From a virus: DNA of 64,000 nt. Below the pieces are notes generated by a model. The model saw nothing but the letters and a program-made list of their open reading frames with translations, was not told where the DNA came from and did no database searches. Made by a program: the position numbers and the translations under genes. The DNA lies in the IMG/VR virus record IMGVR_UViG_3300029305_006219; one strand, written 5' to 3'. Of the stretch, positions 177-63,003 are shown in pieces. Positions within the stretch are counted from its first letter, which is position 1, and the number at the start of each line of letters is the position of its first letter.

Positions 177-196
177 GATATCTTCCTCTTTTTTAC
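159..196. terminator. Bidirectional rho-independent terminator between convergent genes
   Basis: Inverted repeat AGAGGAAGATAT / ATATCTTCCTCT followed by a T-run. It lies between the plus-strand gene and the minus-strand ruvC-like gene. Confidence 0.5.
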
Positions 197-702
197 CACT
201 CTAAAGCAGAGCTATAATCTTTTTCTTTTTTTGGATGTAAATAAGCATGACCAATACAAATTGCGTCTGCAATGTCGTCATTGGTTAAAGATAATCCATA
301 AGCACGGTTTGCAAAGTCTATATCTTTCTATTTTTTCTATTCGCGCTTAGATCCACGTCCATCTTCTATTCCACATACGGAGCGCCAAGAACTAGGATAA
401 ACTAATTCAATTTCTACATTAGGATATTTATCATGAAGCTCGATATGGATTAACGCTTGTAAATACATTAATGCTTTAAATGTATTAGTGTTTTTAGTAT
501 GATCTGGAATAACTTCTTCCATTACAATTTTTTCAATCTTTAACTATTCTACTAATGCTAGTATATTATCAACCATTTTATGGATTCGTTTATATAAATC
601 ATTTGAAGAAGCTGTAATACAAGTCTATCCAATCAACTCTTTGTCTTTAAAAATTGCCACACCTGTTGCTTTAGTTGAGGCATCTAATGCAAGTAAGTAC
701 AT
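193..702 (-). CDS. ruvC: RuvC-like Holliday junction resolvase, read through 4 in-frame TAG codons
   Basis: Joins ORF 337..522 with flanking in-frame segments. N-terminus MYLLALDASTKATGVAIF; C-terminal DDIADAICIGHAYL resembles the RuvC D-A-x-A-x-A-x-x-H motif. TAGs at 337-339, 328-330, 544-546, 625-627. RBS GGAGG upstream of the ATG at 700-702; TAA stop at 193-195. Confidence 0.7.
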
Positions 703-766
703 ATATGCACCTCCATTCTGGTTTTATTATACTATAAAATTTTATAAAAGTCAAAAGGAGCAGAAT

Positions 767-994
767 TTACTTCTGCTCCTTGGCTTTTTGTTCTTGCTCT
801 ATAAGTAATTGATATTGTTGTAAATCTCTTTGATATTCTAATTGGACTTGATTTTGAGTTTCAATATAAATATCTTTTAATAATGCAGCGATTGTAAAAG
901 GCGGTAGATGATAATCATTAACTCCAGCATTTACAAGATTAATAAGATTTTGTTTTAATTGTTCGTAAGCAACAGATTGAGGTAATTGAGCCAT
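767..994 (-). CDS. Hypothetical protein
   Basis: 75-aa ORF with a TAA stop. Confidence 0.35.
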   Translation of the reverse strand: MAQLPQSVAYEQLKQNLINLVNAGVNDYHLPPFTIAALLKDIYIETQNQVQLEYQRDLQQYQLLIEQEQKAKEQK

Positions 995-1479
995 TATTTA
1001 GTTCCTGTACTACCAAATCCGCCTTCTCCGCGCGCGGTAGTTCCAATAGAATTTACCTCATTAAATAGTACTGGTATATATGGAGTAACCACGATTTGTG
1101 CAATACGTTCTCCATGTTCTACTATTTGTACTTCATTTGAAGTATTCTTAAGAGCTACTATTAGTTCTCCTCGATAATCTGAATCAATGATACCTGTTCC
1201 ATTGGCTAATACAAGACCACGCTTTGTAGCCATCCCAGAACGAGGATAAACTGCGCCAAACGTGCCTTGAGGTAGCTCAATAGCAATGCCAGTAGAAATC
1301 TTACGAACTTCGCCTGGAGCAAGGGTGATACGACTTTGCAATTCAAGATCCGCATAAAGATCCCAGCCTGCTGCGTATGTACTGCCCTGCACTGGCTCGT
1401 GCGCAGTGGGTGAAAGTTTTACATAATTTACGTGGCTACGCCACATTCCATTAGTGTCACAAGATGTTACTCCTACCAT
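994..1479 (-). CDS. dut: dUTP diphosphatase (dUTPase)
   Basis: dUTPase motifs (AAGWDLYA, GLVLANGTGIIDSDYRGEL, ARGEGGFGSTG). Internal ATG at 1477-1479 with a GGAG RBS is preferred over the TTG at 1494. Confidence 0.85.
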   Translation of the reverse strand: MVGVTSCDTNGMWRSHVNYVKLSPTAHEPVQGSTYAAGWDLYADLELQSRITLAPGEVRKISTGIAIELPQGTFGAVYPRSGMATKRGLVLANGTGIIDSDYRGELIVALKNTSNEVQIVEHGERIAQIVVTPYIPVLFNEVNSIGTTARGEGGFGSTGTK

Positions 1480-1480
1480 A

Positions 1481-1732
1481 TTAAAATGCTCCAATCTTAT
1501 ATTCTACGCTTGCTTCTCCACAAGGTTCTTTAGGGTCATCGAATACCTTAACCAAAGTTACAATATAATATTCATCAATAATTTCACCCTTTTGTTTGCG
1601 TTCTTTTTTTACCGAAGAGTATTTTGATAAGAGATAGCGCGTATCCGCCTTAGCTGCCTCTATAAGCGCAGCCGCCTCTTTTTCACTATCTGCTCTATGC
1701 TCTTCTGTTGTTTTAAGCAAATATTTAGCCAT
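1481..1732 (-). CDS. Hypothetical protein
   Basis: 83-aa ORF with a TAA stop. Confidence 0.35.
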   Translation of the reverse strand: MAKYLLKTTEEHRADSEKEAAALIEAAKADTRYLLSKYSSVKKERKQKGEIIDEYYIVTLVKVFDDPKEPCGEASVEYKIGAF

Positions 1733-1754
1733 ATCCTTTTATCTCCTTTTATTC

Positions 1755-2036
1755 TTATAGATATTGAAAAGTCAAATCATCTATACTATAAGTTGTTACT
1801 GTTGTTTCTTTTAGTCTTTTTTCAATGCCTTCCATATAATCTTTTGCGCCTGAAAAACTAATATGCTTAATATCATATTTTTTAATAAGCTCGAAAATAA
1901 CTTCATCGAGATCTTCAAATTGAACACCTATTGTGTCAACTATTGCTTTTTCTTTAACGACGCAAATTTTATAAAAAGGGGTTACTGGACTTCCGTGTAT
2001 TAATATTGTATTCATAGACTGCTCCTTAATATTCAA
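1755..2036 (-). CDS. Hypothetical protein
   Basis: 93-aa ORF. Confidence 0.35.
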   Translation of the reverse strand: MNIKEQSMNTILIHGSPVTPFYKICVVKEKAIVDTIGVQFEDLDEVIFELIKKYDIKHISFSGAKDYMEGIEKRLKETTVTTYSIDDLTFQYL

Positions 2037-2704: not shown

Positions 2705-3187
2705 TTAACTAATCCTTTCTGCGTATTGATTGGGAGAAGCCAATTTTACGCCAAGTATTTCATCATAATGTGACTCAGTATTTGGAATATAGCGCCCAAA
2801 TTTTATTATGATGTTTGAAAATTGTTTTAATTGAATTAATTCATTTTCAATCTCATCTTTATTATAACCTGTATAGATAATAATATCATCATTTATAGAA
2901 TAACATTCTCTAAAAACAAAGATAAGATTTAACAGGTCTTCAAATGTATCAAAAGGTTCTAGACCTTGGAAGCATATCGCGCGCGCGATAGGGTTGTTTC
3001 TATAAGCTTGTACTATTGAAGTGTTAGCAATTTCTTTATCAGGTGCGGCCACCAGTGCGCTATTTTGACACACTGGTTGGCCGCATTCACGATCGCATTT
3101 AAAACCTTTACAAATAGGCGTTTCTATTGTCATACAAGGAACTTTATAATTTACAAAATCTTCAAATATAATTCCTTTTATTTTCAT
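2705..3187 (-). CDS. nrdG: Anaerobic ribonucleotide reductase activating protein (NrdG-like radical-SAM activase)
   Basis: Sits immediately downstream of nrdD with ATGA overlap. IIIYTGYNKDEIENE and GLEP motifs resemble NrdG WVWTGY.LDEL and GGDP. The Cys cluster is non-canonical. Confidence 0.55.
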   Translation of the reverse strand: MKIKGIIFEDFVNYKVPCMTIETPICKGFKCDRECGQPVCQNSALVAAPDKEIANTSIVQAYRNNPIARAICFQGLEPFDTFEDLLNLIFVFRECYSINDDIIIYTGYNKDEIENELIQLKQFSNIIIKFGRYIPNTESHYDEILGVKLASPNQYAERIS

Positions 3188-6100
3188 TTATTAATAGGCT
3201 CCCATTTTCTCATTTTATATTCATTAGTTCTTTCTTTTGACCACGTCTTTATAGGGGTGTAAAAGCCAACGATACGAGTATATTCTGTTTCAACTGGTCG
3301 ACCACATACTGGACAAGTGCGTCCATAGAAGGCATGGTTATTATCACAAGCTTGAATCTTGGTATTAAAAGCAAAATATGTTACTCCTGCATCAGAGATA
3401 TAATTAACCATATCCCAAGCCTTATCAAAACTATCAAATGGGGCATCGATATTGGCGTGTAGGATCGAACCTCCATTGCAATATCCATCAAACTCTGCGG
3501 CGATACGTACGCGCTCGGCAAGGGTTGTTTGTATACCAAGCGGAATAAATTGATTACCATAAAGCGGTAAGTCAAAGATGCTCGCTTCCGGATAAAAGAA
3601 TTTGTCTTTTTTCATTAGCTTTGCGGCAGCCGACTCTCCGGGGATCTATTCAGTATTAACGTGATAATCGGCGCCTACCTCTGCAATAAATTCATCTGCC
3701 GTTTGACGTATAGTCTCAAAGATTCTTTTACCAAGCGACGAAGCATTTTCTGTATAGTAAACATTGCCAAATTCATCTGTACGAGTATAGCCAAAACGCT
3801 TCATTGTTTCATATACTCCGATAAAACCAATAGTATTATAAAGATGTTCAAAGTCGACTAACCCATTAGAAAAATTAGGTAATAGTCCTTTTTCAACATT
3901 ACGACGAATAATATTACGTACACAATGTAGTGCTTGAAGATTCAAAAGTGTCAACTTCTTCAATCCACATAGATATTCAAATTCATTAGCACTATCAAGA
4001 GCGAGGCGCGCGAGGTTGATTGTAGAGACTTTAACTGAACCGACTTTTAGTGCGGTACCTCCGATACTATTAAAATAACCTAGGTCTTTAATATCACTCT
4101 TCAAACGACAACAGTTAGAAAGTGAAGTTACTGAATCATCAATAAATAGGTTACTGTCAGACCAGCGCATATTGTGTTTAACTGCCCAGCGCGCAAAATC
4201 TTCATCTTGGAATTTACCTTCTTGTTTTAGTAGAGAGATTGAAAGTACTGGAAAAGTAAACATATTCTTGTCCCTGATATCAGCAACGGTTTCCATATAC
4301 CATTTTTGGAATTCAATAATTTCTTCTTCATAGTCAATCATAAATTCTCCATTAGGGAACTCACTGCCGCCAAATAAAGCTTCGTAGTAAGGACGATCAA
4401 ATACACTGGTATTAGTAAATGCAGATTGCGACCCATCGCGGACATAAGGTTGATTCACTGCGTATACAAAACGCTGGAAGTTTTGACGTGCATATTTCTC
4501 TCCATTTCCGCTACTCTTGATACCGAGATAGTCTTCTTCCATATCCTTATGCCAAAAGTAATACATATAAGGGATGAGATTAGGAAGTCCTACGGCGCCG
4601 GAGGAACGATTAGAAGCATAGCTAATAAACTCTTTAACAAAATCAACAAAAGTAGTTAAATGCTAAGCAGGCTCAGGATTAAAAGGTGCGCCAATAAAAT
4701 ATAGTCCTTTTTCAGCCAGGTCTTTCAGGTCATAAGCAAAACAATTATGAGATAGAATGTTGTTGCAAATAAAATGACCTGTTTTTGTTGTTAAGTCATA
4801 TACCTCAGGGCATTCATCAATATACTCTGAGTTATCAATAACTGAGACCCATCCATAGTTATATTCATATTGCTTGTTTTTAAAATTACCTTTACGAGTT
4901 AAAGGAATATATTTTTCAGCAATTTTAATACTTCCAATACGAGAAAAATATTCTTCGTTCGTTAAAGTGAAGCCAATCCCAAACATTGGTAACTTTTGTT
5001 CGAAGCTTCCAGCTCGATTATATCTAAATGGAGTGCGATCTCCTGCAAAAACCCCTTTGGAATGTAAATACATACTCAATTGATGGCATAGCGTTTCTGA
5101 GGCAATACGGATATGACAATGTCTATTTTTATATCCATCAATAGTACCATCGCCATCGATCATTCCCGCAATAATTCCATCCATAAATTCAGAAGGATAA
5201 GTCATGAAATATGATGGTAACTGCTTAGTTGCAGAAGTCTGACCTTTTAATAGTGAATTTAACCATTCTTCAAAAGGACTAACCTTTAAATAAATTTTTC
5301 TATCTCCACTTTCTGAATATGGAATATCATATTGGTCACAGATATATTTTAATTTTTCAGCTTGAGGAGAATCTAGTTTTTGAGCAATTACAAATTGACT
5401 ATTCAGACTATTTCCTTCGGAAAGAGCCATACCTAATATCCATCCTGTCTCTCTATTATAAGGAATTTGATATACAATTTCTTGATGACTTTCAGAATAT
5501 TTATTAGGCTGTATTGTAAAGACTCGATACTCACTAGTTACATCCTTTGCAGGAATATCTCCACAATCGGTAATAATAGGGTGATCTTCTGTTACAATTT
5601 GTGATAAACCATTTGCTAACTTGATAAAACGCATAGGTTTATTATTTGTGTGTTTAACTGCGCGAGTAATCTTAGTCCAACATTTTTCTCCAGTTTCTTC
5701 ATTAATATCAAGTATCTCGATATTTTTCGGGAAAAGTGCATTTTGTTCAATAGATACATCATATTTTTCTTCTGCTTCTGTATCCATATACAAAATATTT
5801 TCATACAAATTCTTAAGTGCAAAAGTGTATTCACGATGCACCTTGTCTCTTACTGTTACAAGTTCTTCACCCTTATAGCAGTAATGTTTAAAGGTCGAGG
5901 TATCAGCATCATGCATGTAGAGCTGACCAATCCATTCGGCGCGCAACCACTCATTTGCACGTTTAAAACCAAAATGTTTTTGCATCTCATAATGAATTTT
6001 ATTATAAGCTAATAATTTTCTATGAGGTTTTGGCATTTCGTTTAAGAGAGTTACAATATCTTTTTTACTAACATTACTATTGCCATCAATACTCGCGTCA

Positions 6101-6321
6101 GCTACGACTTTGGTATCGATAAATGAACTAATAAAATCTGTGTAACTTAATTGTTCATCAGCAAATCCATTAAGCTTTGCCATTTCAGTTCCAAATTCAT
6201 CTTGCATTTTGTTATAAGCAGTAACAAAATTTTTCTTTAATTTAACATTAACTTCCATATCTCCAATGATATCCTCCTGTTGTTTGTAAAAATCCTTGAC
6301 AGCATCGAGATATGTTTTCAT
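3184..6321 (-). CDS. nrdD: Anaerobic ribonucleoside-triphosphate reductase NrdD, intein-containing, read through 2 in-frame TAG codons
   Basis: ORFs 4663..6333, 3646..4566 and 3184..3615 are one reading frame separated only by TAG at 4663-4665 and 3646-3648. C-terminus has a CPVCG zinc site and a RIVGFYTP glycyl-radical motif. TGA stop overlaps the nrdG ATG. Confidence 0.85.
4744..5880 (-). mobile_element. Intein (about 379 aa) with LAGLIDADG homing endonuclease domain inside nrdD
   Basis: Starts CYKGEEL and ends ILSHN followed by +1 Cys (CFAYDLKDL, aligning with E. coli NrdD FNC-MLIDLKG). Contains LGMALSEGN and IAGMIDGDGTI dodecapeptide blocks. Confidence 0.7.
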
Positions 6322-6922
6322 GATGTATGCCAAGCTCTTTCTCTGCTTCTGCTAGAGATTTAAAGTTTTGATTTAGCTCCACACAATAAACTGGAGTAAC
6401 TCTTTTATCTTCAGATAGAGGAAGATTATTTGATAAATAATCTTCATAGTATGTCCAATGAAATTTATATGCAGTGTGTAATTTTCCACGACAACACGCA
6501 ATAATATTTGCATTAGCAAAACCCTTTAATCGTTCAATTTCTTTTGCGCTATCAAAAACCTTTTGTGTTTCTAAACATATAATTTTTCTTTTTGTTTTAC
6601 AACTATTACTCATTTTTTGACGAGATTCTCTTGAATATTCATTATTCAATCCGCCACTTTTTATATTATAGCCACTATTCACAGTATCATATTTTGTGAT
6701 AAGTTCTTCTTCTTTTTGATTAGCTTCCTGTAATGTTAAGTTCTCATATAAAATAGTCTATTCAAAATTATCCCATCCATATTTTTCAATAGCATGATAA
6801 AATTTAACACAGCCAGTATAGTTAGAGGGGTGACAGCGACGCGTGATATCTTTAGACTAACCAATATATTTTTTGCCATTTATTTTATTGGTATAACAAT
6901 AAATGCAATATTGATTATCCAT
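6248..6922 (-). CDS. GIY-YIG homing endonuclease (HE1) between nrdH and nrdD, 2 in-frame TAG
   Basis: N-terminus MDNQYCIYCYTNKINGKKYIG[TAG]SKDITRRCHP...YGWDNFE[TAG]TILYENL, then the C-terminus of ORF 6248..6682 with two C-x-x-G...GY.W.Y repeats. TAGs at 6857-6859 and 6758-6760. Confidence 0.8.
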
Positions 6923-7139
6923 TAGCATGCTCCTTTGCCCAATTAGTAAACCACTTAATAGCTTCTGGGCCTGTATAGATAGTACCATCCATACGAAGCG
7001 CGGGAGCAGCTTTTACTCCAAGAGCAATAATTGCATCTTCATCTTCAATATGCTTATAGCTGATACCAGCTTTATCCATTTTCATTTTTAACACTTTGCA
7101 CTGGGGGCATCCAGGCTTTGAATATAAAGTTATATCCAT
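6915..7139 (-). CDS. nrdH: NrdH-like glutaredoxin
   Basis: 74 aa with a CPQC redox motif, adjacent to the nrd genes. Confidence 0.7.
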   Translation of the reverse strand: MDITLYSKPGCPQCKVLKMKMDKAGISYKHIEDEDAIIALGVKAAPALRMDGTIYTGPEAIKWFTNWAKEHANG

Positions 7140-8000: not shown

Positions 8001-11000
8001 TCATTCTTCCATATCCTTTCTTTCATGAACTAGTTCCATATCGCGTCCGTTATTAAGCAATGATATTTTATAGATTTGGTGCGTCGGGGTATGCTTATAG
8101 GTCTTGGTTACGAACTGGTCACCACGTTTATAGCCAGTTAAAAGTAGCATCGTTCCTCTCTTAAACCAGCCCTTTTCTGTTATCTTCTTAGATCCATCAT
8201 CCTGAAGCTCCGACAATTGTTTCTTGTACTGCGCATAATATTCCTTCGTAAACTTAACAGTGACAACACCGCTTGGAGTTAATAGAGTAATAGATGCTTT
8301 ATTATCATTTTTTGCGATTACAGTTCCGATAATCTTATGCGTTTTCCAAATCGGAATCTGTTGACCATTGCGCTTGAAATAGTAGTCAACCTCGGGCTCT
8401 TCTGGAAGCGCAAAGAAGTTTGAAATACCATACTTATAGGTGTCAACATTTGCTAACTCATGCTCGTGATAATAGAAACATAGAGACTCCATTTCCCAAG
8501 AGGATAAAGATCCTTGAGCATATTTATTCCAAGTATCCATAAAGAGCTGTGTATTGAGTTGGCGCAAAACCTCACTCTGATTCTCCTTCAACCAATCACG
8601 GGCGCCATCCATCTGTTTCTGATAAATACCGTCCCAAGTCTTTTGTTGAATACAAGTTAATCCATTGATAACTTCAAGTTTTTCAATATCAAAGTGACCT
8701 TTATAGAATTTATCACAAGGTTCATCAAATACAAAGTATTTTCCAACTTTTGTATTTGCTTTGAGATATTTATTAAACTCAAAAACTCTGCGCTCAAAGT
8801 CAAGTGACTCTGGAACCAGACCACGCTGAATAAGTCCGTTAAAGTTCTGCAAAGTTAGTTTACTTTTAGGCTCACAAGCTTTTGATAAATAATATGCCAT
8901 AGCTACGAAACGAGGATGGATATTTAACTCTTTACCCCATTCTGCTTCAAGCTTATCAAAGGCGCCCGCCTTGATAAGAGAAATCATCTGTGTTTTATTA
9001 AGAGGACAGCGCTCCATAAAATCGGCGATATTAGCATACGGTCTGCCGCAAATTATCTGCTCAATAACTTCGCTATTGATTCCGCTTAATGCTTTCATAC
9101 CAAAGAGGATTTGATTATTTTCTACGTCAGGCTTAAAGCTGAATTGAGATTTGTTTATATCAACTAAAGATACATTAATACCAGCGGAAATAATATCTCC
9201 TAAAGCACGAGCAAGTTTTGTATAATCAGTCTGTTTATCTTTTGCCTCTTCATCGTCATCTTCATTGTCATAGCCTTCAAGTGAGCCACTATTAACAATT
9301 AGATTTGCGGTATTCCAATAAATTGGATTCCATCTAGTCGCAGCATACGCAGTCTGGAATCCTATAAATGAATAGGCTAGAGCATGGATTATGGAGAAGG
9401 AATAACCCATCTGGGGTCCAATTCCATGTTTCCATACATAGTGACCCATGCATGGAGAGCTAGCCTGATCAAGAACTTGTTGTTGTAAAGCAGGAATCTT
9501 AGACATTTGCTTTTTTCCGACAATTTTTCTGGCGGCGTTGGCATCTGCAAGGCTAAACCCACAAATCTTGGGATCCATCAACATCTGCATCATCTGCTCC
9601 TGAGAAGGTGGAACACCGTGAGACTTTAAGAAGTAAGGTTTTAATACCTCTTGCTCCTCTTTGGTTAAGCCAAATTCATCCATTTCTTTATACCAAAGGT
9701 TAATATTATTCTTAAAACGAACATACTTTTCCATTGGGGTTTCCTGACCTTTTTCATTTGTCATAAGGCGCATTAAACCATTGGCGTCCGCCAGCTCAAG
9801 GATACTTGATGGACGAATCTTTTTAGCCGCTTGGGCGCCCACATCTGAGTCAAACTGGAAAAGACCTAATACTGCAACATCTTGAATAGGTTTCCAATAC
9901 TTTTCTTCTTCAATAGGAAGAACATTCGGATGAAAATATTTATCATATATCTGGCGCAAGGTCATATCTGACTCTAATTCGCCAGTCTCTTGCAGCATAT
10001 TAATAGTCTCTACGAGTTTGTCTTGTACTTCTGTTACAAGGAAGTCATATTTCACCATTCCAAGTGCCTCACAAGTGTGAAGATCAAATTGCGTTATAAC
10101 TTCACCTTTTGGAGTTCTCATGAATGCGCCAAACTCATATGGATCTTCATCAAATAAAATTACTCCAGATGCGTGAGATGAGCGCTTGTTCTTAAGACCT
10201 TCAATCGAAGTCATAATTTCCAAAAGTCCAGGATAATGATTTACTTCTCGAACGAATGACGCTACTGGTTTACGATCTTTATCTGGGTTACCATTAACAA
10301 CATCATTGATACTCCATAAGAAACCACGCTCTTGCGGAACAAGAGAAGTAAGATACTGCGCCATATCAACATCAATACCGTCCGGATATTCTTCACTACG
10401 ATAGCCGCGGCAAGCGGTCAATATTGCGCTCTTTGTAGTTTCCGTACCAAAAGTTGCAATAAGAGTACAACCTAAGTTTGCGCGAGACAGTTCATCAATA
10501 TCTGTATTAAACTTGGCTCCACGTTCTTCTTTAATTTTCTTAAGAATATAGGGTCTTTTACTTGGACAAAGGTCTAAGTCGATATCACCGAGTTCTACTC
10601 TTTCCTTATTGAGGTAGCGCCAGAAGGGAAGATCCCACTCTATAGGATCAAGCTGGGTAACTCCAAGGAGATAATGGTTTAGGCCTGAGCAGCTTGAACC
10701 ACGACCGGCGCCAACCATAGAACCGCATTCCCAAAAGAGATCAATATAATGCTGAAGAGTGACAGGATATGCAAACATATTTGTTTCCAATTTTTCACTA
10801 ATCGTTCTCTTGATATCTGCTTCTTCTTCAAGTCTGTCGAGATATTGAGAAAATTCAACGATTAAATCATAACTGGTAGCTTTCTTTTTATTTGCCAAAC
10901 TTTCAAAACATTGATTTACCCAATATCGTTCCACCTTATTTTCAGAATTAAATAGACTATTCAAAGTAGGGTAATGTGTACCGATAAAATATTCATCGTC

Positions 11001-11975
11001 ATTACCAGATTTTGTTAAATCAACTTGCGGATACTCTTTTACTTCAACTTTAGGAATTCTTTGCTTATGTCGAATACTGTAATTTTCAATTTTATCATAG
11101 ATAGATAAGCTATTTTCAAATAAATTGCTAATATAATTATCATCATTGAAAGATTTTCGTAAGTTTTCAAAAATCTCGTCTTCAGTTTGAAGATAAGAAT
11201 ATTCATAGAAGCTATCTACTTCTCTCTCGCCGCCTTTTGAATTAAGATACGCTTTATGAACATATCTATCCTTCTTTGAGAGATAATGTGCGTCGCTGCC
11301 AATTACCATTGGAATCTGCATTGCATCAGAGATTTGACGCAGCTTTTTATTAACCACTATCTGATCTCTTGAAGCGGCGGGCGCGCACTCTAAATAAAAG
11401 TCGTTTCCAAAAAGATTCTTACACCAAGAGATAAAATCAATGATATGATTATACTCTCGCTGTCTTGTATCCATATCAAACATAGCTTCTGCACTTACCA
11501 TATTTGCGACTGCTGTTGATAATTCTCCGCCGAGACAAGCGGTTGTTGCTATAAGTGAATTTGGATATTTGTTTACAATTTCTTCGAGATCTGATTTAAG
11601 AGTTACTACTCTTTCCATGCCGCGATCCCAATAGCTATTGAGCCAAGCGCGCGATGATAACTCTCTTAATGCGCGCCATCCATTAAAATTTTTCGCCAAT
11701 AAGATAAAATGCCAATATTTTTGTCCAGTTTCTCTAGTATTGCATAAATAAATCTCGTTGCCTAAAATAACTTTAAAATCAGGATATTTTTTTTGAATTT
11801 CTTCTGCATAAAAATTAGCCTCTGGTAGTCCAGCTAAAGTTTCATGGTCTGTAATAGCAATTCCTTGAAGTCCTATTTCTACTGCCTTATCTATAAGACG
11901 TTGTACAGTGTTTACGCTATCTAACAATCTAATATTACTATAATCACTATGAGTATGAATTTCACATCGTTTCAT
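8001..11975 (-). CDS. dnaE: DNA polymerase III alpha subunit (DnaE-type replicative polymerase with PHP domain)
   Basis: 1324 aa. N-terminal PHP motif MKRCEIHTHSDYS...ITDHE. No in-frame TAG. GGAGG RBS upstream. Confidence 0.85.
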   Translation of the reverse strand: MKRCEIHTHSDYSNIRLLDSVNTVQRLIDKAVEIGLQGIAITDHETLAGLPEANFYAEEIQKKYPDFKVILGNEIYLCNTRETGQKYWHFILLAKNFNGWRALRELSSRAWLNSYWDRGMERVVTLKSDLEEIVNKYPNSLIATTACLGGELSTAVANMVSAEAMFDMDTRQREYNHIIDFISWCKNLFGNDFYLECAPAASRDQIVVNKKLRQISDAMQIPMVIGSDAHYLSKKDRYVHKAYLNSKGGEREVDSFYEYSYLQTEDEIFENLRKSFNDDNYISNLFENSLSIYDKIENYSIRHKQRIPKVEVKEYPQVDLTKSGNDDEYFIGTHYPTLNSLFNSENKVERYWVNQCFESLANKKKATSYDLIVEFSQYLDRLEEEADIKRTISEKLETNMFAYPVTLQHYIDLFWECGSMVGAGRGSSCSGLNHYLLGVTQLDPIEWDLPFWRYLNKERVELGDIDLDLCPSKRPYILKKIKEERGAKFNTDIDELSRANLGCTLIATFGTETTKSAILTACRGYRSEEYPDGIDVDMAQYLTSLVPQERGFLWSINDVVNGNPDKDRKPVASFVREVNHYPGLLEIMTSIEGLKNKRSSHASGVILFDEDPYEFGAFMRTPKGEVITQFDLHTCEALGMVKYDFLVTEVQDKLVETINMLQETGELESDMTLRQIYDKYFHPNVLPIEEEKYWKPIQDVAVLGLFQFDSDVGAQAAKKIRPSSILELADANGLMRLMTNEKGQETPMEKYVRFKNNINLWYKEMDEFGLTKEEQEVLKPYFLKSHGVPPSQEQMMQMLMDPKICGFSLADANAARKIVGKKQMSKIPALQQQVLDQASSPCMGHYVWKHGIGPQMGYSFSIIHALAYSFIGFQTAYAATRWNPIYWNTANLIVNSGSLEGYDNEDDDEEAKDKQTDYTKLARALGDIISAGINVSLVDINKSQFSFKPDVENNQILFGMKALSGINSEVIEQIICGRPYANIADFMERCPLNKTQMISLIKAGAFDKLEAEWGKELNIHPRFVAMAYYLSKACEPKSKLTLQNFNGLIQRGLVPESLDFERRVFEFNKYLKANTKVGKYFVFDEPCDKFYKGHFDIEKLEVINGLTCIQQKTWDGIYQKQMDGARDWLKENQSEVLRQLNTQLFMDTWNKYAQGSLSSWEMESLCFYYHEHELANVDTYKYGISNFFALPEEPEVDYYFKRNGQQIPIWKTHKIIGTVIAKNDNKASITLLTPSGVVTVKFTKEYYAQYKKQLSELQDDGSKKITEKGWFKRGTMLLLTGYKRGDQFVTKTYKHTPTHQIYKISLLNNGRDMELVHERKDMEE

Positions 11976-44368: not shown

Positions 44369-44372
44369 TTAA

Positions 44373-51639: not shown

Positions 51640-54477
51640 TCACGAGTTATAATCGTTGTTTGCTATTATCATATCAGTTAGTTTTACAAAACCCTGAGAC
51701 ATTGAGTTGATGTCGACGTAAAACTGATTATCATAATAATTTGTATCGATAACCTGATTATATTCATCAACATAAAATCCGCTTGTGTTATATGGAGTGT
51801 TAATCCACTCTTGCCAAGTCATACCTTCTAAGGCGGTGTATGATGCTCCGTTAACGGTAAAGGTAATTATAGGCAATGTTCTTGTAAGAGTATATGTGTG
51901 ATTTGCTACGATTGTATCACTTGTTTTAACATATTTATATATGATGTTACCATCCTCATCTTCGTCTTCTCTCAAACATATAAGATTTCCCGTCATGTCC
52001 TCACAAACATATCCAGGTATCAATGGATCACTCCAATAATTTTCAGAAGGAACATAGTAACTGCCGTCGCTGGCGTTCATAAAATCAGCCCAAGTCATAC
52101 CCTCGGTGACTGTATATGATTCATCTCCTGCATCGTTACCGTCAATATAGAATGTTATTGTGCTAGGTGTTGGCTCTTCTTCGTTTTCAAAATTAAAGTA
52201 AATATCTATTTGAGTATCTGTTGAAGTCGTATAATCAATTGTAAGGTTATTGTTTTCAATATCGATAGAGTTAATATTTGAAGTTAAATTATCAATACCA
52301 TTTAAGGTTATTAATTCATTGTTCTACGAACCCATATTTATTGTTTTAGTATTTTCAGTTGCAAGAAGCTCTATTGATATTGGGCTTGTTATTTCTACTT
52401 CAATCCCTACAGCATCGATATAATAGTTACATCTTCCTATAATAATATCCAAATCACGACAATGTCTACCGCTACCATCATTAAGCCATACTGCGCCGAT
52501 ATATCCATCTCCATCTTCATCGATAATAGATTCTGCTACACAGTTTTCTTCTCCGTTAACAGTAAGAGAGTTCCAAATAACAAAATCCTTTGTATTATAC
52601 GCGCTATCGCACCATTCATACCACGTCATACCAGGCTCAGCCATGTATGTTATTCCTTCAATAGTGAAAGTGATTTCAAGTGTAATATATGAATCATCTA
52701 TATAATATACACCATTTTCTGTAATTGTATCATTATAAGATACCATCATCTTGATATCATCGCTATTGTAGTATACTGCGCCGATATATCCATCTCCATC
52801 TTCATCAGTTGCAGATGTTGCTATTAAGTCTTGATTATATGAGCTATTATAAGGAACAAAACCTGCTTTATTATATGAGCTATTACACCAATCGCTCCAA
52901 ATCATATTCCTATTAGATGTGTATTCTGTTCCATTAATAGTAAATGTTATTGTACTTGTTTCGTTTTCAAAACTAAAGTAAGCATCTATTTGAGTGTCGG
53001 TTGAAGTTGCATAATTAATTGTAAGTTCATTATTTTCATTAATATTAATAGAGTTGATATTTGAAGTTAAATTGTCAATACCATTTAATGTTAATCTATT
53101 CTATGAATCTATATTTACTGTTTTAGTATTTTCAGCGGCAAGAAGCTCTATTCTCATTGGACTTGTTGTTCCTGCTGGTATGTCTCCAATTGTGTATGTA
53201 TAATTTGCCATAATAAGACTACTTGGGAAAACTGGCTTACTACCATCATTGCAATATACCGCTACTTGTGATCCCTCTTCTACCACAAAACCATCTTGAA
53301 TAATATAGTATGTACCATATTCACTATTCACCCAGTCTTGCCAAGTCATACCTTCTTCAAATCTATAGAACTCGTCTCCCGTTAGATTATCTTCGATATA
53401 AAATATTGAGGTTGAAATAGGTAATGAATCTGAAACTATATATGAATGATTTATTCTAATAACATCACTGGGTTTAACAGCAGTGTACTCATTTAAAAGC
53501 ACATATCGACCTGTAGAATTTTCTATTATATAATCATTTTGAACTACATATTCTGCATCATCATTACTTGAAATACTATCAATCCATTCTTGCCAAGTCA
53601 TACCACTCTCGGCGAAATATGATTCTTTTTGCATATCATTTCCTTCAATATAAAATGTTATCATACCTACAATATAATCTCTATAAACACTCCAATTTGT
53701 TGCTGCTTTCCAATCATCAACAAGTTCATAGGGAACTCTAATTTTACAATTTGAAGGAATGTTTAAAAAAGCACTTGTATTAGCAAGAGTTGGTATACTT
53801 GTATGAAAAGAAAAATCGTAATATTGCATTGAAGTACAGTTGGCAAATGCGCTTGATCTAATAGTTGTAACGCCATTAGGAAAATTCATTTGTGTAAGAG
53901 CCTTACACCCATAAAAAGCTTGCTCTCCAATTGCTGTAATATTACTAGGTAGAGTTATGCCTGAAAGAACTTTACAACCGCTAAACATGCGATATCCAAT
54001 CCAGGAAATATTACTGGGTAAAGATATATCTATAAGAGATGTACAATTATAAAATGCTTCATCTCCTATTTTTGTAATACTATCGGGTAGACTTAAACTC
54101 TTAAGCTTAGCACAATTAGTAAAAACACCTACTCCAAGTTGTGTAATAGTGTTAGGAATAATTATATTTGCATTTGACTCAAGTCCATGACAATTTGAAA
54201 AAGCATAATCACCAATATAAGTAATATTATTTGGTATATTTATTTTTGTAAGATATGTGCAGCCCTCAAAAGCAGCTCGTCCTATTTTTGTTATATTAGC
54301 TAAATCCTGTGTAGTTATTTCAGTAATTGTTCTATCAATTATTTTAGCTAGTTTACTTTGTTCTTCTGTATCTGCATTTAAAGCCGTTACAATAATATCA
54401 CGATCGCAATATTTACCTGCTGTTTTTAAACGAATGGAAGATCCGCTTGTTACATTTATATTATGTTCAGCCATCAT
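51640..54477 (-). CDS. BspA-type leucine-rich-repeat tail fiber/receptor-binding protein with C-terminal tandem repeats, 2 in-frame TAG
   Basis: ORFs 53101..54477, 52324..52905 and 51640..52098 are one frame joined by TAG 53101-03 and TAG 52324-26. LRR_5 repeats (NITYIGDYAFSNC...). Repeated (R/S)IELLA(A/T)ENTKT(V/I)N(I/M)(D/G)S and GMTWQEW blocks. Confidence 0.6.
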
Positions 54478-54794
54478 TCTACCTCCCCATTATAAACAGG
54501 TAGGGCATTTATTACTGCTGAAACTATTTCATTTTTATCTTCATCTGTCCAATAATCCGTTCCTTTTACAGGAGTATAACCATCGTCACCTTTCTCTCCA
54601 GTTAATTCTAGAAAAGGAAGATTTCCTACCTTAGTCGTTCCATCTCCTATTTTTAATCGAGGCTTAGATTCTCCTCCTTTACCGTCAGAATAAATAATTA
54701 ACTCTCCTTTTAAAGGTATAAAAGTCGTAGCTAATTCCCATTCTGCGGCCGTACCTATTTTATGCTAGATACGAGCATTAATTTGTTTTGCCAT
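54474..54794 (-). CDS. Tail fiber N-terminal anchor-domain protein, 1 in-frame TAG
   Basis: MAKQINARI[TAG]HKIGTAAEWELATTFIPLKGELIIYSDG...RLKIGDGTTKVGNLPFL, plus a collagen-like GEKGDDG. TGA overlaps the ATG of the LRR gene. RBS AAAGGAG. TAG at 54765-67. Confidence 0.55.
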
Positions 54795-54999: not shown

Positions 55000-57480
55000 T
55001 TATTCTTTTGAAGCCTCTACAATATTTTTCATTGTTTTCTCAAGGCTGGTTCCACGAAGCAGAGTGTTCCATGTCTCAGCGAGAGATTCACCCTTAGCCA
55101 TAGCGGCAGGCGCGAGGTTTTTGCCAAGTCCATTCATAATCTCTGCATTTGCCTGAGACTCAAGTGCTGCTACAAGATCAGGGCTAATTGCCGCAAATAT
55201 CTTAGCAACGTTGTCTGCATATGCCTTCTGTTTTGCTTCTTCTATTGCAGCAAGCTGCTTCTCAGTTGCGATCTTGGCATCATCTGCCGCCTTATCACGA
55301 GCAAGCTGTGCTTTCTGAATTGCATCGAAGATAGGCTGCATATCAGACTTGGCAGTAGCTTCAGCTGTTGCCTCAGCACGCTTCATAGCGGCGATCTCCG
55401 CCTGATTCTTTAGCTTTTCTTCTTCAGCCTTCTGGTTAAGCTCAAGCGCATACATCTTATTCTGGTGATTAAGTTCTGCCTCTTCACGATCGAATTTAGC
55501 AATCTGCTTAACCATTTCAGATTTACGAGTAGCATCAGAGAGTTCAAGAGTTTTCTGAATCATTTCCTTCTGGTGTGCTTCCATCATCTTAGCGACTTGC
55601 GCCTCAACCTGAACATTGAGAACTTCAACATCAGTTACAAGCATACCATTTTCTTTAAAGAGTCTTCCGTTATGAGGCGCCTGATCAGTTTCTGCTTTAG
55701 CTACATTGCCAAGCGCAGTGTTTCTGATGATGTCTGCCGCTTTTGCGTAGAACTCTTCAATATTATACTTCTTAGCTTCGCGCTTAAGGAGACTGCGCAT
55801 TCTGTCACACATATGTTTTACATAGTTATCTACAGAGAACCACTTATCCTTATATTCGGGAAGGAAGTTTACATTATAGGAGAGAAGGAACTTAACATCA
55901 ACAAAGTCCTTTGTCTGAACACTGATGATATCAGATACCTTATTATTGTCAATACGGAGATATGCAGTCTGAATCAGATTGTCTGTTGTCTTAGGCTTAC
56001 CTGTTGAAAGATTTACAATTTCAAGAGTCTCATCATACTCAAGGAGTCGAGTAGCAGGACCAATGATTGTCTCTCTCTTACCAGACTTGGATACAACATT
56101 TACTGCATAGCCAGTCCATACATTGATAGCAACAACTCCATCATACTTTGTATCAAGCACAATAGTACGAGGCTTTGTATAAGATACACCGCGCGAAATA
56201 TTAGCGGTTGCCGCAAAAATCGCAAGAGCATCATTTTGATTTGCAGTGCTATATGCATTATTAATTATGTCTGTCTTGTTAGACTTACCATTGCGCGCAT
56301 CGCGCTCAGCCTTTGCTTCAGAAAGACCGAGGTTATATTCAAGCGCCTCACGGTTGCCAGGATAGAAAGTTTCGCACTCCTTAACAGAAAGTACTCTCTT
56401 AACAACTACCTCAAAACGAGGATCAGGAAGATACATAGCGGGACCCTTGACCATCTTAACAGTTCCCTTAATTCTATCAAGGATATAGCGTCCTTCGCCC
56501 TCAGGAATTGCTATTGCATGATGCATATACTTACCGTCATACTGAATAAGTGCGTGCTCAGGGCGAGGATAGTAAATCATCTGATTATTACCTGTAATAA
56601 AGAGTTCTTCGCCAACAGGATGCTTAACTCCATTCTCTGTATATTCTGCGATAACCTTTACATAAATACCGCTAATAGGCGAAAGTTCAAGTGCGCGGAA
56701 TATTACGCCCTTCTGAGGGGTCTGTACGAAGGTCTGTGTAGGTGTAGGGAATACAACCTTGGGTCCATGAGCATAGACCTTTTCACCGTTTTCATCTTTA
56801 AGGATACAATACTCAAGGCGCTCAAGGGTGACTGCATCGCGCACATACTCAGAAGAGTTATCTTCACAAGCGAGAACTTCAATACCCGTAGGAGGAATAT
56901 AGAAAGATACTTCAGTACCCTTGATTACAAGTTGCTGACCTGTAAAGTAGGTCTCTTTCTTAACGATCTCTTTACCTTCTGCATCGAGAATAGTTGCGGA
57001 AGCAGCGTTCTTGGCGGCTGCCACTGCGTCATAAACGCGAGCAATGAGGTACTGGTTAGAACGAAGCTTATGTCCTCGAATAACTTTTGCCATCTGACCA
57101 GGGAATAGCGCAAAGGAAGCAGGTCCAGAAATATTAACCTTAATACCAATTTTCATATTATCGGGAGTAACATTCGACTTACCTGCAAGAGGGTATACAC
57201 CATCTGCCGTAGGGTTCTTGAGAATCACATACCAACCCTCGGGCGCCGATACAAATAGCTGTTTTGCTCGCTCGAAGTCTTTTACTTCATCGAATTTCTT
57301 TGTCTTATTGTTGAAAATAACACAAGTCTGCTGCTGAGAAATAGTTACCATAGCAGGTCCTGCATAGGTTCTAATCTCACCGTTAGTGCAGTCCTGAATC
57401 TGGACGTATTCATTGACTGCAAGTACAAGGTCGCGTGTGCGACCTCTATTGTCATTTGCATTGTAATTAAAATCATTCAT
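55000..57480 (-). CDS. Large flotillin/MVP-like SPFH-domain coiled-coil protein (function unknown, possibly structural)
   Basis: 826 aa. C-terminal Ala/Glu/Lys-rich coiled coil typical of the flotillin/YqiK C-terminus. No TAG. Confidence 0.35.
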   Translation of the reverse strand: MNDFNYNANDNRGRTRDLVLAVNEYVQIQDCTNGEIRTYAGPAMVTISQQQTCVIFNNKTKKFDEVKDFERAKQLFVSAPEGWYVILKNPTADGVYPLAGKSNVTPDNMKIGIKVNISGPASFALFPGQMAKVIRGHKLRSNQYLIARVYDAVAAAKNAASATILDAEGKEIVKKETYFTGQQLVIKGTEVSFYIPPTGIEVLACEDNSSEYVRDAVTLERLEYCILKDENGEKVYAHGPKVVFPTPTQTFVQTPQKGVIFRALELSPISGIYVKVIAEYTENGVKHPVGEELFITGNNQMIYYPRPEHALIQYDGKYMHHAIAIPEGEGRYILDRIKGTVKMVKGPAMYLPDPRFEVVVKRVLSVKECETFYPGNREALEYNLGLSEAKAERDARNGKSNKTDIINNAYSTANQNDALAIFAATANISRGVSYTKPRTIVLDTKYDGVVAINVWTGYAVNVVSKSGKRETIIGPATRLLEYDETLEIVNLSTGKPKTTDNLIQTAYLRIDNNKVSDIISVQTKDFVDVKFLLSYNVNFLPEYKDKWFSVDNYVKHMCDRMRSLLKREAKKYNIEEFYAKAADIIRNTALGNVAKAETDQAPHNGRLFKENGMLVTDVEVLNVQVEAQVAKMMEAHQKEMIQKTLELSDATRKSEMVKQIAKFDREEAELNHQNKMYALELNQKAEEEKLKNQAEIAAMKRAEATAEATAKSDMQPIFDAIQKAQLARDKAADDAKIATEKQLAAIEEAKQKAYADNVAKIFAAISPDLVAALESQANAEIMNGLGKNLAPAAMAKGESLAETWNTLLRGTSLEKTMKNIVEASKE

Positions 57481-58795: not shown

Positions 58796-59221
58796 TTATT
58801 CTACTTCGTGTTTATAATTAAGTGTTTTGAATTGGCGGCGATCGATGCATTTAAGCTTCTCGCTTTCATTGATATTTTCTAGCAACAACTCACAATTAGC
58901 GCCAGTTGCACTAAGATTACGTATAGACTCCATCATTTCTGATAAAGAAACACCGTATGATTTTGCTGCTGTTGCTATTTTCTGCAGAGCATTGCTCATA
59001 CTACTCTGTGCTGTTTGTAATTGTTCTTCTTTAGTACCCATTCTCACTTCTAACTCCTTCCATTGATGTACACCATCTCCTATTTTTACTGTGACGATTC
59101 CTTGATCAGAATCAATTGCGCAACCCACTTCGCCTTTCATTAATATTGGATTATTTTCATTCCAAGCCTATGGAGTATCATTTTTCATAATAAGGCGCGT
59201 ACTTAGATTATAAGTTGCCAT
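58796..59221 (-). CDS. Tail-fiber N-terminal-domain-like protein, 1 in-frame TAG
   Basis: MATYNLSTRLIMKNDTP[TAG]AWNENNPILMKGEVGCAIDSDQGIVTVKIGDGVHQWKEL continues into ORF 58796..59140. TAG at 59168-70. RBS AAAGGAG. Confidence 0.5.
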
Positions 59222-61100: not shown

Positions 61101-61119
61101 AGGCTTGGAAGTAGCTCCA

Positions 61120-61195
61120 TGGTACCGACTCTGGGATTCGAACCCAGAAATTTTAGTTCCTAAGACTAACGCCTATGCCATTCGGCTAAGTCGGC
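61120..61195 (-). tRNA. Class-I tRNA with anticodon UAG (would read CUA/CUN); identity undetermined
   Basis: GCCGACU UA GCCGAAUGGCAUAGGCG UUAGU CUUAGGA ACUAA AAUUU CUGGGUUCGAAUCCCAG AGUCGGU A CCA. Short variable loop, A73, G1.U72. Confidence 0.6.
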
Positions 61196-61512
61196 ATAAA
61201 GGTTGTTGATTTTGCGGTAACAACCAACCCGCTGAAGGGAGGAAAACCATGAAAAGTCTCGTACTTGGAGGGAACTGAGAATTACGATATCTCGACATCA
61301 ACCTTAACAGGGTTGCGCTCTGCCTCTGAGCTAAGCTCCCATATTGCGCCTGTGAGGTTTACTTCAGTAGCGCCAACTGAAGGTGACTTACTTCGCTTCT
61401 TTATATACCGTTTTCCGCTATTGCTCCATACCTCGTTACCATATCGCGGTGAACCGCACCTTGATCTGAGTCGGGAGTAGTTTAGTCACTAATCCGTGTT
61501 AACGGTTATATT

Positions 61513-62163
61513 TTAATCAGCCTACCATTTCCAAATGAAACCATAAGCAGATTTTCTAATTCCATTTGCACACTCTCGAATGTGCGTTGAAATACCTTTT
61601 ACTTTCACTGAAGATGTTAAATTATTATCTATTAAATACTGAGAAGCATCTGTTAAAGAAGAAAAACTTTGAATATATTCATTAGTTTTTTTATCAAACA
61701 TTTTTACAGCTTTGCTAAACAACTCTTTATTAATTGTTTGAGCAGTTTTTAATACGCCTCCTCGTTGATGAATAACAATATATACGCTATCTACTGAAAT
61801 ATTTAATTTTTTTGCCACTTCTGTTGCATTTTGCAAAACTTCATAAGTGGAATAGATTAAATCATAATCTAAATAACGTTTTCCATCTCCTCCTAAAGTA
61901 GCATTATAACCATTTTTAAATGATTGTTTTTTCTCAATCCAAAAGATTTCTCTTTCAGAAGGATTATCTGTTTCTTCAAGCAATTCTATATGAAAATGTT
62001 CAATTCCATATTTGTTTATTGCTCGATATAAAGGACGATCCTTGCATCTTTCCTTTTGATAATCACTACAATGCTCTTTCCAACGTTTTTCTATAGACTT
62101 TTCTGTTTTACCAATGTATATTTTACCATTTATATCATTGGTAATTTGATAAATGTATGCCAT
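61513..62163 (-). CDS. GIY-YIG homing endonuclease (HE6) in the tRNA cluster, 1 in-frame TAG near the C-terminus
   Basis: MAYIYQITNDINGKIYIGKT...R..H...NGYNATLGGDG...; C-terminal CANGIRKSAYGFIWKW[TAG]AI then TAA. RBS AAAGGAG. Confidence 0.75.
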
Positions 62164-62244
62164 ATTTAAATAGCTCCTTTTTATACTTATTATCAACTTT
62201 TAGCTTAACCCATCGCACACCACGTGGAGGTAGTTGATTAAGTG

Positions 62245-62316
62245 CGACCTGGGGTGGCTGGATTTGAACCAGCGGGTGTCAGAGTCAAAGTCTGATGCCT
62301 TGCCACTTGGCTACAC
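62245..62316 (-). tRNA. tRNA-Gln (UUG)
   Basis: UGGGGUG...anticodon loop CUUUGAC...GCUGGUUCAAAUCCAGC CACCCCA G. U1-A72 and G73. CCA is not encoded. Confidence 0.8.
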
Positions 62317-62561
62317 CCCAATAATATCTTAATTACATTAACTAATAGGAGTGATTTGCACTATTCCAAAGGCGATTACTCAACCTTCCTCCTTTAATCT
62401 TGTACAAGATTTGTGAACAACCTAAGTTACCGTTTCACTACGGAGTTAATGTTATTACGATTAGCGACCCCTTTCGGGCAATTTTGAATCGAGAATTTGT
62501 TGATGGAAACTCAGGTCAGGAGTTTATATTGCATCGCTTTATTTCTTACATATATATTATA

Positions 62562-63003
62562 TCATAAATTTTTTAGAAAATCAATTAATCGATAATTTTC
62601 TACCAAATTTATCCCTTTAGTTTGATTATTTTTTGGAGGATCTTGTCTAAAAGTAATTACTTTTTTAGTACCAATTTCTTCAATTGGCAGAATAAGAATT
62701 TCATTCCATTCTACGATATAAAAACAAAAATAATCTATGTCATTCTCGTAAGTGCTATAATGTTTATTGGTAGTATGGTTTGTACTGCTTGCACAAGGAC
62801 AGGCAATAGAATTATTTTCAGTAATTTGTTGATTACAATACTTTACTTGAATACGATTTAATTTTCCATTAAACTCTGCTATCAAATCATAACGAGCATT
62901 ATCTCCAAAAGGGATTGCTACCTAAATGTTATTTTTAACAAATTCAGCAAGTACAACTGCCTCACCAATATTGCCTTTATCTTTACTATTCATATTACTC
63001 CTT
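62562..63003 (-). CDS. PD-(D/E)xK (Hjc/endonuclease-like) nuclease, 1 in-frame TAG
   Basis: MNSKDKGNIGEAVVLAEFVKNNI[TAG]VAIPFGDNARYDLIAEFNGKLNRIQVKY continues into ORF 62562..62885. TAG at 62932-34. RBS AGAAGGAG. It is immediately adjacent to the interrupted tRNA-Lys. Confidence 0.45.

Follow-up and report, generated by a model that had tools for sequence, protein, structure and literature searches.

Gene content of the window and its relatives

The DNA analyzed here, which we call the window, is a 64 kb stretch of the IMG/VR virus record IMGVR_UViG_3300029305_006219. Our subject is the TAG codons that lie within its genes and a tRNA gene with the anticodon CUA that could decode them. The window has a G+C content of 36% and nearly all of its genes are on the − strand. 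Pfam scans show that it covers the half of a large tailed phage genome that is devoted to replication and nucleotide metabolism. Predicted proteins include the alpha subunit of DNA polymerase III (PolIII-alpha or DnaE, 8001-11975), DnaB, gyrase A and B, an NAD-ligase, RNase H and a sigma-70 factor, followed by the anaerobic ribonucleotide reductase NrdD and its partner NrdG, a dUTPase, RecJ, an AAA_24 ATPase, a leucine-rich repeat (LRR) tail-fibre-like protein and several homing endonucleases. A cluster of tRNA genes is found at 59.7-63.6 kb, and the window contains no terminase gene. The genes, introns and tRNAs of the window that are given below with coordinates lie on the − strand.

Among cultured phages, the closest DnaE proteins are those of SPbeta-like Bacillus phages, at 39.6% identity, and of Enterococcus phage EF1, at 38.5%. 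Many relatives occur in IMG/VR, where their contigs measure 105-190 kb. Because the contigs of the closest ones are 123-135 kb long, the window is probably about half of a genome, and the evidence on TAG presented here covers that half. Related contigs were binned together with metagenome-assembled genomes of Eubacteriales, Bacilli, Erysipelotrichaceae and Clostridium, all of them Bacillota, which is a weak hint of a Bacillota host. For comparative work we collected 206 related phage loci with a combined length of 3.67 Mb, drawn from the surroundings of nrdD on ENA contigs and, on IMG/VR contigs, from those of the genes for DnaB, an RNA ligase, a protein resembling the major vault protein (MVP) and gyrA. 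All window proteins were aligned to these loci and the codons were read directly, giving 393,760 unique aligned codon columns.

TAG is read through within genes

When only TAA and TGA are allowed as stops (code 15), the open reading frames (ORFs) of the − strand contain 39 in-frame TAGs. Approximately 32 of them fall within 17 credible genes with curated starts, in agreement with a first-pass annotation of the window, made from the sequence alone, which had proposed that at least 15 genes are open only if TAG is a sense codon. The TAGs that it had singled out in the genes for NrdD (4663-4665 and 3646-3648), an HNH endonuclease (50150-50152) and RecJ (19739-19741) are all in frame. Five others (1506, 7943, 44852, 59239 and 59227) probably lie 5' of the real starts of their genes.

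Several observations pointed to read-through. Searches of Pfam, PHROG and PDB yielded single-stretch domain alignments that run over TAGs in NrdD, RuvC, GIY-YIG, HNH_3 and PDDEXK_5 proteins, with GIY-YIG Pfam domains crossing three TAGs across two genes (19802-20554 and 30470-31417). We looked on the − strand for lone stops bordered on either side by 100 or more open codons and found five, all of them TAG, with no TAA or TGA. In each reading frame of that strand, TAG is the rarest stop trinucleotide. The comparison of coding density that had been suggested as a check was less telling. Code 15 did raise the coverage by greedily chosen ORFs to 89.5%, compared with 83.9% for code 11 and 84.6% for code 4, but this is a weak test of the code because a control in which TAA was made a sense codon also reached 88.8%. 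From the sequence comparisons taken together, TAG is confirmed as a sense codon in the predicted genes, with TAA and TGA kept as stops.

The alternative is that the TAGs are genuine stops and that the genes are decaying pseudogenes or separate fragments. Homing endonucleases often decay, one of those in the window has a TAG three codons before its TAA, and in the HNH endonuclease the TAG stands opposite a Trp column (TGG) that is one transition away. However, the interruptions are by TAG alone and never by TAA, TGA or a frameshift, and essential parts of proteins, such as the glycyl-radical domain of NrdD, are encoded 3' of the TAGs. TAG positions are also shared by relatives at 85-88% identity, with protein-level conservation on both flanks. 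In addition, TAG is avoided as a terminator and a suppressor tRNA is present. We regard this alternative as extremely improbable.

Genes that contain TAG

NrdD (3184-6258) provided the clearest case. Its ORF of 1049 codons is overlong because it contains a 379-residue intein (4744-5880) and because the real start is at 6258. The intein has the Cys…His-Asn/Cys residues and a LAGLIDADG-type endonuclease region and is free of TAG; close relatives have an uninterrupted NrdD of 645-646 amino acids. The Pfam NRDD domain matched once, over ORF residues 526-1043 and both TAGs, with 279.7 bits. The alignment of Thermotoga NrdD (4coi) with the C-extein (residues 1-513, E=1e-126) took in the glycyl-radical end, so that the glycyl-radical C-terminus said to lie downstream of the TAGs is indeed present in the joined frame. 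The site at 3648 is Q in 120/120 database homologs and in the standard-code Thermotoga protein, and the DNA of relatives has CAA there. The other site, 4665, falls in a variable column (K60/R23/Q18) where relatives have the codon CAG.

Two other DNA-processing genes carry TAG near their predicted starts. RecJ (17999-19792; Pfam DHH and RecJ_OB) has its TAG at codon 18 (19739-19741). Among 45 relatives, 32 have CAA or CAG opposite this codon and 5 have TAG. Since Gln codons predominate there, the TAG lies inside the gene, and the N-terminus of RecJ runs through it as had been proposed. The first exon of the AAA_24 ATPase gene (26686-27258; Pfam AAA_24) has TAGs at 27223-27225 and 27214-27216. 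Across more than 50 relatives, the codons at these sites were Gln 31/Lys 14/TAG 9 and Lys 31/Gln 20.

In the gene for a RuvC-like Holliday-junction resolvase (193-702), four TAGs (625-627, 544-546, 337-339 and 328-330) make up 4/5 of the Gln-like codons. When Q was substituted at these sites, phrog_159, phrog_827 and phrog_1770 each gave one match over residues 1-159 that extends across all four; with X at the same sites, there was no Pfam or PDB match. In the relative L001, two of these codons are CAA and one is TAG.

The first-pass annotation counted six GIY-YIG homing endonucleases. We found five free-standing genes, at 6248-6934, 11979-12866, 19802-20554, 30470-31417 and 61513-62196. The sixth motif is the C-terminal domain of a coiled-coil protein, and a search of the window for a sixth free-standing gene found none. 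The first of the five, upstream of nrdD, has TAGs at 6857-6859, within the motif YIG-TAG-S, and at 6758-6760. At the former, Gln is the commonest residue in relatives (5/12). The second lies upstream of dnaE, has both GIY-YIG and NUMOD1 Pfam domains and contains four TAGs (12261-12263, 12249-12251, 12243-12245 and 12168-12170), all four of which are kept in its L001 ortholog, where the public gene call reads through. In the third, both TAGs (20498-20500 and 20462-20464) lie within the Pfam GIY-YIG domain (residues 7-86). The fourth has TAGs at 31322-31324 (YIG-TAG-A) and 30614-30616; the first of these is inside the Pfam GIY-YIG domain (residues 17-98) and relatives have TAG, CAG, CAA or TTA. 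The contrast between YIG-Q-S in one paralog and YIG-TAG-S/A in others holds, with CAA at 20480-20482 in the third gene and TAG in the first and fourth. The fifth gene has a single TAG (61522-61524), three codons before its TAA.

Two further endonuclease genes and a nuclease gene have one TAG each. A homing endonuclease with a Zn-ribbon and HNH-like features (13916-14887; phrog_374, phrog_559 and phrog_9084) has TAG at 14834-14836, where relatives have AAA, AAA and TAG. The HNH homing endonuclease (49727-50425) matches Pfam HNH_3 over residues 83-126. This match crosses the TAG at 50150-50152; relatives have TGG or TTT at the site. The PD-(D/E)XK endonuclease (62562-62993; TAG 62922-62924) gave a single Pfam PDDEXK_5 match over residues 1-136 of 143 (E=4.9e-33).

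The coiled-coil protein mentioned above is predicted to have a transmembrane segment and a C-terminal, T5orf172-like GIY-YIG domain. The first exon of its gene (31583-32566) contains TAGs at 32453-32455, 32432-32434, 32291-32293 and 31970-31972. Relatives that are 85-88% identical keep TAG at three of these sites and have CAA/CAG at the fourth. Two small proteins are also affected. A Cys-rich protein (2511-2705; TAG 2556-2558) matched phrog_38239 over residues 13-61 with the TAG inside, and relatives have GCA at the site. A winged-helix protein (32618-32869; phrog_142 and phrog_1687) has TAG at 32795-32797, where relatives have Ala (26), Gln (5) or TAG (1).

Three tail-fibre genes complete the set. 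The BspA-type LRR tail-fibre-like protein (51640-54477; Pfam LRR_5) has TAGs at 53101-53103 and 52324-52326, after which a further 486 and 227 codons are open. The two TAGs occupy an equivalent position of an internal repeat, and the protein had no homologs among the related loci compared. A tail-fibre N-terminal protein (54474-54794) has its TAG at 54765-54767, which is residue 10 and the first residue of the Pfam Mtd_N match; phrog_6049 covers residues 2-73. A second tail-fibre N-terminal protein (58796-59221) matched tail PHROGs over residues 1-96 and has TAG at 59168-59170, a site at which one relative (L077) also has TAG.

Two of these genes are split by mobile insertions that are unrelated to TAG. 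The AAA_24 gene is divided into 26686-27258 and 25224-25715 by a group I intron region (25713-26685) that contains a match to Rfam RF00028 (78.2 bits, 25713-26068) and a LAGLIDADG ORF (26001-26636). In L005, L007, L010 and other relatives this gene is one continuous ORF. The coiled-coil gene is cut after 'YIGQA' by an insertion of approximately 1.3 kb (~30289-31597) that carries the fourth GIY-YIG endonuclease, and its second exon (30083-~30288) resumes at 'NIKERWVTH…'; relatives carry the gene intact. About 160 nt following the endonuclease ORF of the insertion (30300-30461) are kept beside related endonucleases in L035, L066, L072 and L075. An Rfam scan of the insertion matched no intron model; a divergent group I intron and a simple insertion are both conceivable. 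A separate disruption occurs in L001 (960-6049, ~85% identity), where a GIY-YIG endonuclease gene divides PolIII-alpha into parts of 839 and 491 aa. The dnaE gene of the window is intact.

Termination is left to TAA and TGA

Consistent with the earlier statement that no gene terminates with TAG, we found no clear case in approximately 80 genes and one ambiguous case. This sole candidate is the TAG at 61522-61524 in the fifth GIY-YIG endonuclease gene. The 'AD' that follows the TAG matches an internal 'WKYKAD' of its paralogs, making read-through at this codon plausible but unproven. The same avoidance was seen in relatives, since TAG ends 28/284 orthologs in those that have no in-frame TAG versus 4/223 in those that are recoded.

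TGA had been proposed to remain a stop because of its use at gene junctions, and the window has five ATGA and two GTGA stop/start overlaps, from which we conclude that TGA terminates. In the aligned codons of relatives, in-frame stops were TAG in 439 cases, TAA in 22 and TGA in 5. We also considered code 4, in which TGA specifies Trp. It was rejected since it gave no gain in coverage, TGA is found at stop/start overlaps and only 5 TGAs occur in the 393,760 aligned codons.

TAG most likely specifies glutamine

Opposite the TAGs of the window, relatives have Gln codons (CAA/CAG) 103 times, Lys 57 times, TAG 43 times and Ala 31 times; others are rare. Using a substitution model built from the same codon alignments, the log-likelihood for the residue at TAG was −596.7 for Gln versus −777.6 for Lys. 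With sites weighted equally, it was −69.4 for Gln versus −84.1 for Ala. Public gene calls on near relatives also read TAG as Q, and those on L001 go through the TAGs. The first-pass annotation favored Gln, and the codon tables, the NrdD site at 3648 and the Gln-type acceptor end of the tRNA described below agree with this. By these comparisons, Gln is predicted as by far the most likely meaning of TAG.

The suppressor tRNA

ARAGORN predicted a suppressor tRNA with the anticodon CUA at 41063-41137, which the Rfam tRNA model matched with 58.9 bits. Its acceptor end has an unpaired U1·U72 followed by G2-C71 and G3-C70, with G73 and an encoded CCA. The body folds as a canonical cloverleaf in which the anticodon stem has 5 bp and the variable loop is short. 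G10, G18G19, U35 and a TΨC loop are all present, and the T-loop carries GTTCGATTCC. The acceptor end, G10 and U35 match the tRNA-Gln identity set known for glutaminyl-tRNA synthetase (GlnRS) of E. coli, where the 1:72 pair opens on binding. When the tRNA(CUA) was compared with 104 tRNAs from the window and 117 loci, the three best matches were tRNA-Gln(UUG). The acceptor-end features and these nearest matches uphold the earlier view that the suppressor is Gln-like. Overall identity separates isoacceptors poorly, with values of 63-70% for many, and for this reason we built the argument on the acceptor end. The ordinary tRNA-Gln(UUG) of the phage (62248-62321; ARAGORN and Rfam) has U1-A72 and G73.

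The tRNA(CUA) gene lies between the RNase H gene and the gene upstream of gyrB, and a tRNA(CUA) gene is in the same position in the four closest relatives (L166:7386-7461, L171:~5108-5206, L173:6471-6567 and L193:5571-5646). The bodies of these syntenic tRNAs are very different between relatives, and two have long variable arms. Across the five tRNAs, including the one from the window, position 1:72 is mismatched in four (U·U, A·A, A·C and U·C) and is a weak U1-A72 pair in the fifth, and all five have G73. In a reading that we hold to be unlikely and return to below, the suppressor locus would be a fast-evolving cassette, selected repeatedly to capture the host enzyme that charges Gln despite the loss of G36. 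A comparable acceptor end occurs in supE of E. coli, a tRNA-Gln with a CUA anticodon that has a weak or open 1:72 position, G2-C71, G3-C70 and G73. GlnRS charges this tRNA, which then adds Gln where UAG is read. Unlike supE, the suppressor of the window is phage-encoded and syntenic, and its genome appears adapted to it, with no TAG terminators and with TAG in essential genes.

Other unusual tRNAs were found. A close TAG-recoded relative (L121, IMG/VR contig 3300029305_005988) has a tRNA with the anticodon UCA, resembling an opal suppressor, at 3640-3715; its aligned genes contain no in-frame TGA. In the window, Rfam detected a 151-nt tRNA at 63011-63161 that ARAGORN, run with introns allowed, called a tRNA-Thr(UGU) whose anticodon loop is interrupted by 78 nt. 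This insert contains a hairpin resembling a T-arm. There is also a weak tRNA-like match at 63686-63754, and ARAGORN with introns proposed a nearby tRNA-Gln(UUG) with a 171-nt insert.

Another possibility is that TAG stands for a different amino acid, for example Lys, Glu, Ala, Trp or pyrrolysine. Lys is the second-commonest partner of TAG, some sites face only non-Gln residues and ARAGORN labelled the tRNA(CUA) 'tRNA-Pyl', a call that is based on the anticodon. However, Gln is ahead of Lys by ~180 log-likelihood units and remains ahead when each site is counted once, and the NrdD site at 3648 is invariantly Gln. The tRNA(CUA) is not of the Ser, Leu or bacterial Tyr type because its variable loop is short. 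We ruled out the 'tRNA-Pyl' label because of the canonical cloverleaf with G18G19, the TΨC loop and the 5-bp anticodon stem. Genuine tRNA-Pyl has a 6-bp anticodon stem and a tiny D-loop, lacks G18G19 and TΨC and is accompanied by pylS/pylBCD genes; Pfam scans of the window detected no Pyl genes. A residue other than Gln is therefore improbable.

It could also be that the host itself reads TAG as Gln and that the phage simply matches the host code. However, the phage carries its own tRNA(CUA), and we know of no bacterial lineage in which TAG has been described as Gln. Recoding is also patchy within this phage family. Among 110 well-covered loci, 39 have at least three in-frame TAGs and 58 have none, and approximately 10% of genes in the standard-code members of this clade end in TAG. 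We consider a recoded host highly improbable and favor decoding by the tRNA of the phage.

Several points weigh against decoding of TAG as Gln by this tRNA. Non-Gln residues stand opposite TAG at some sites (Trp/Phe at HNH 50152, Phe at 6760, Ala at 32797 and Cys at RuvC 627), and Lys is found opposite several others. The columns that face non-Gln residues are variable or have substitutions that are not conservative. Counts of Q in protein databases are partly circular since recoded relatives are stored with TAG as Q, as in P0002, where residue 19 is Q in the database and TAG in the DNA. We used such counts only beside codon-level data and the standard-code Thermotoga protein, and the codon tables are not circular. 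The tRNA would have to compete with release factor 1 (RF1), and Pfam scans of the window found no release factor, RF2 included, and neither an aminoacyl-tRNA synthetase nor an RF1 antagonist. Charging by a host enzyme is deduced from the lack of a synthetase gene in the window, and a host enzyme most likely charges the tRNA with Gln because the acceptor end and U35 fit recognition by GlnRS. Many Bacillota, though, have no GlnRS and make Gln-tRNA using GluRS and GatCAB, which prefers U1-A72. Finally, the 64 kb window is a partial genome without a capsid or lysis module. Weighing these points, we conclude that TAG is very probably read as Gln by means of the phage tRNA(CUA), a conclusion drawn from sequence comparison.

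Distribution of TAG among genes

TAG is rare in the coding sequences. The 39 in-frame TAGs occur in 18.7k codons and account for ~6% of Gln-like codons; their density is 2.1 per 1000 codons in frame versus 14-23 per 1000 out of frame. They are concentrated in the homing-endonuclease genes, RuvC, the coiled-coil/GIY-YIG gene and the tail-fibre genes. Six homing endonucleases have TAG at 12/66 Gln-like codons, and the ten longest core genes for replication and transcription have none at 221 (P about 1e-6). A 16.5 kb block that holds the suppressor tRNA (33197-49730) has TAG at 1/135 Gln-like codons, and this lone TAG is probably upstream of the real start. Within TAG-bearing genes, the first 15% of the gene contains 12/32 of the TAGs versus 21/173 of the CAA/CAG codons (Fisher p=0.001), with the caveat that paralogs account for some of the TAG sites and that not every start codon is certain. 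This uneven use of TAG fits delayed completion of recoded genes and selection against an inefficient codon in highly used genes alike.

A refinement of the favored explanation, which does not exclude it, is conditional suppression. Here, instead of a fixed reassignment, host RF1 would still end translation at UAG early in infection, and the codon would be read as Gln only after tRNA(CUA) accumulates, so that TAGs would serve mainly as timing gates for endonuclease, recombination and tail genes. This is in keeping with the absence of TAG from core genes and from the block around the suppressor tRNA, with the skew of TAGs to the 5' ends of genes and with what Borges et al. (bioRxiv 10.1101/2021.08.26.457843) report for their phages, where the pattern is the same and an intron endonuclease within an early gene is recoded. 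However, genes with and without TAG are mixed along a single strand with no clean modules, RecJ, AAA_24 and NrdD are not classical late genes, and the 5' skew arises in part from paralogous sites and uncertain starts. We hold conditional suppression to be possible but doubtful. A more specific form, in which 5'-proximal TAGs would act as a deliberate gate that restrains selfish homing endonucleases, RuvC and some genes for DNA processing and the tail until the suppressor accumulates, and the suppressor locus would be a fast-evolving cassette, seems unlikely and is offered tentatively.

Other features of the window

Three additional genes are of interest in their own right. The first (55000-57480) encodes an 826-residue protein with the shoulder and repeat domains of the major vault protein (PF11978, 6e-26, and PF17795). 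The protein is conserved across 46 relatives from IMG/VR, and no PHROG family matches it. The second (50456-51643) encodes a protein with a Hint module and lies between the HNH endonuclease and LRR tail-fibre genes. The third (35296-36144), between gyrA and the ligase gene, encodes a papain-like protein (Peptidase_C1).

Discussion

An earlier report of stop-codon-recoded phages is said to have been made by Ivanova et al. in 2014. Recoding of TAG to Gln in phages is already established from crAss-like, Lak and Agate phages and phAss-1. Borges et al. (bioRxiv 10.1101/2021.08.26.457843) described it across eight phage clades, with suppressor tRNAs that lack cognate synthetases and codes that differ between close relatives. 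They found that replication genes were left unrecoded and that an intron endonuclease was preferentially recoded. The phage described here resembles theirs in that TAG aligns best with Gln, the tRNA(CUA) has no cognate synthetase and the code varies among close relatives. Its replication genes are likewise largely free of TAG and its endonucleases are recoded, and it is similar in genome size and animal-gut source. It differs in having TAGs in RecJ, AAA_24, NrdD and RuvC rather than in structural or lysis genes alone. Their 'Agate' clade has genomes of 154±27 kb and is Firmicutes-associated; the well-studied Agate lineage is TGA-recoded, unlike the relatives of the window compared here, which show no TGA recoding.

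Another recoded phage, phAss-1 (GenBank OQ749652), has a genome of ~136 kb, with TAG read as Gln in 28% of ORFs, a tRNA-Sup-CTA and no dedicated synthetase (Babkin et al. 2023, PMC10607447). It was placed in a proposed Phassvirus group, falls in the 'Caudoviricetes code 15 clade' of NCBI and is related to Enterococcus phage EF1. The phage of the window and phAss-1 both have a class III ribonucleotide reductase, a dUTPase, PolIII-alpha, RecJ and gyrase. We considered whether phAss-1 is a close relative, at the level of Phassvirus (about 80% or greater nucleotide identity, with synteny), and rejected this since core proteins are only 25-35% identical in amino acids and there was no megablast match; megablast with 25 kb of the window against GenBank phages gave zero matches. 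By these sequence measures, the two belong to different genera. The phage of the window represents a different SPbeta-like lineage, apparently undescribed, that is distant from phAss-1.

The crAss-like phages provide an experimental precedent. Peters et al. 2022 (PMC9523058) report that code 15 in these phages was validated by metaproteomics. In both cases, TAG is read as Gln and the host is expected to use the standard code. Unlike the phage of the window, which is nearest to SPbeta-like Bacillus phages and EF1 (~39% DnaE identity), crAss-like phages belong to an unrelated order and have Bacteroidota hosts.

In the explanation we favor, an SPbeta-like tailed phage of about 125-135 kb from the animal or human gut, perhaps the rumen, would decode UAG in its genes as glutamine rather than terminating there. 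The decoder would be supplied by the phage as the tRNA(CUA) at 41063-41137, and an enzyme of the host would charge it with Gln. Following the model of Borges et al., TAG-bearing genes would be completed only once the suppressor tRNA accumulates, and recoding would in this way delay or limit their expression.

These results have a practical side. Annotation of this phage needs translation table 15, as table 11 truncates or splits at least 17 genes, including those for NrdD, RuvC and RecJ. They add an SPbeta-like lineage to the phages in which TAG is read as Gln and leave the current picture of phage recoding unchanged. Recoded and standard-code relatives occur together in one clade, which makes it a handy comparative set. 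With it one could ask how a stop codon ceases to end genes and comes back into use as a sense codon, why the recoded codon builds up in selfish endonucleases and which features allow a host enzyme to charge a suppressor tRNA.

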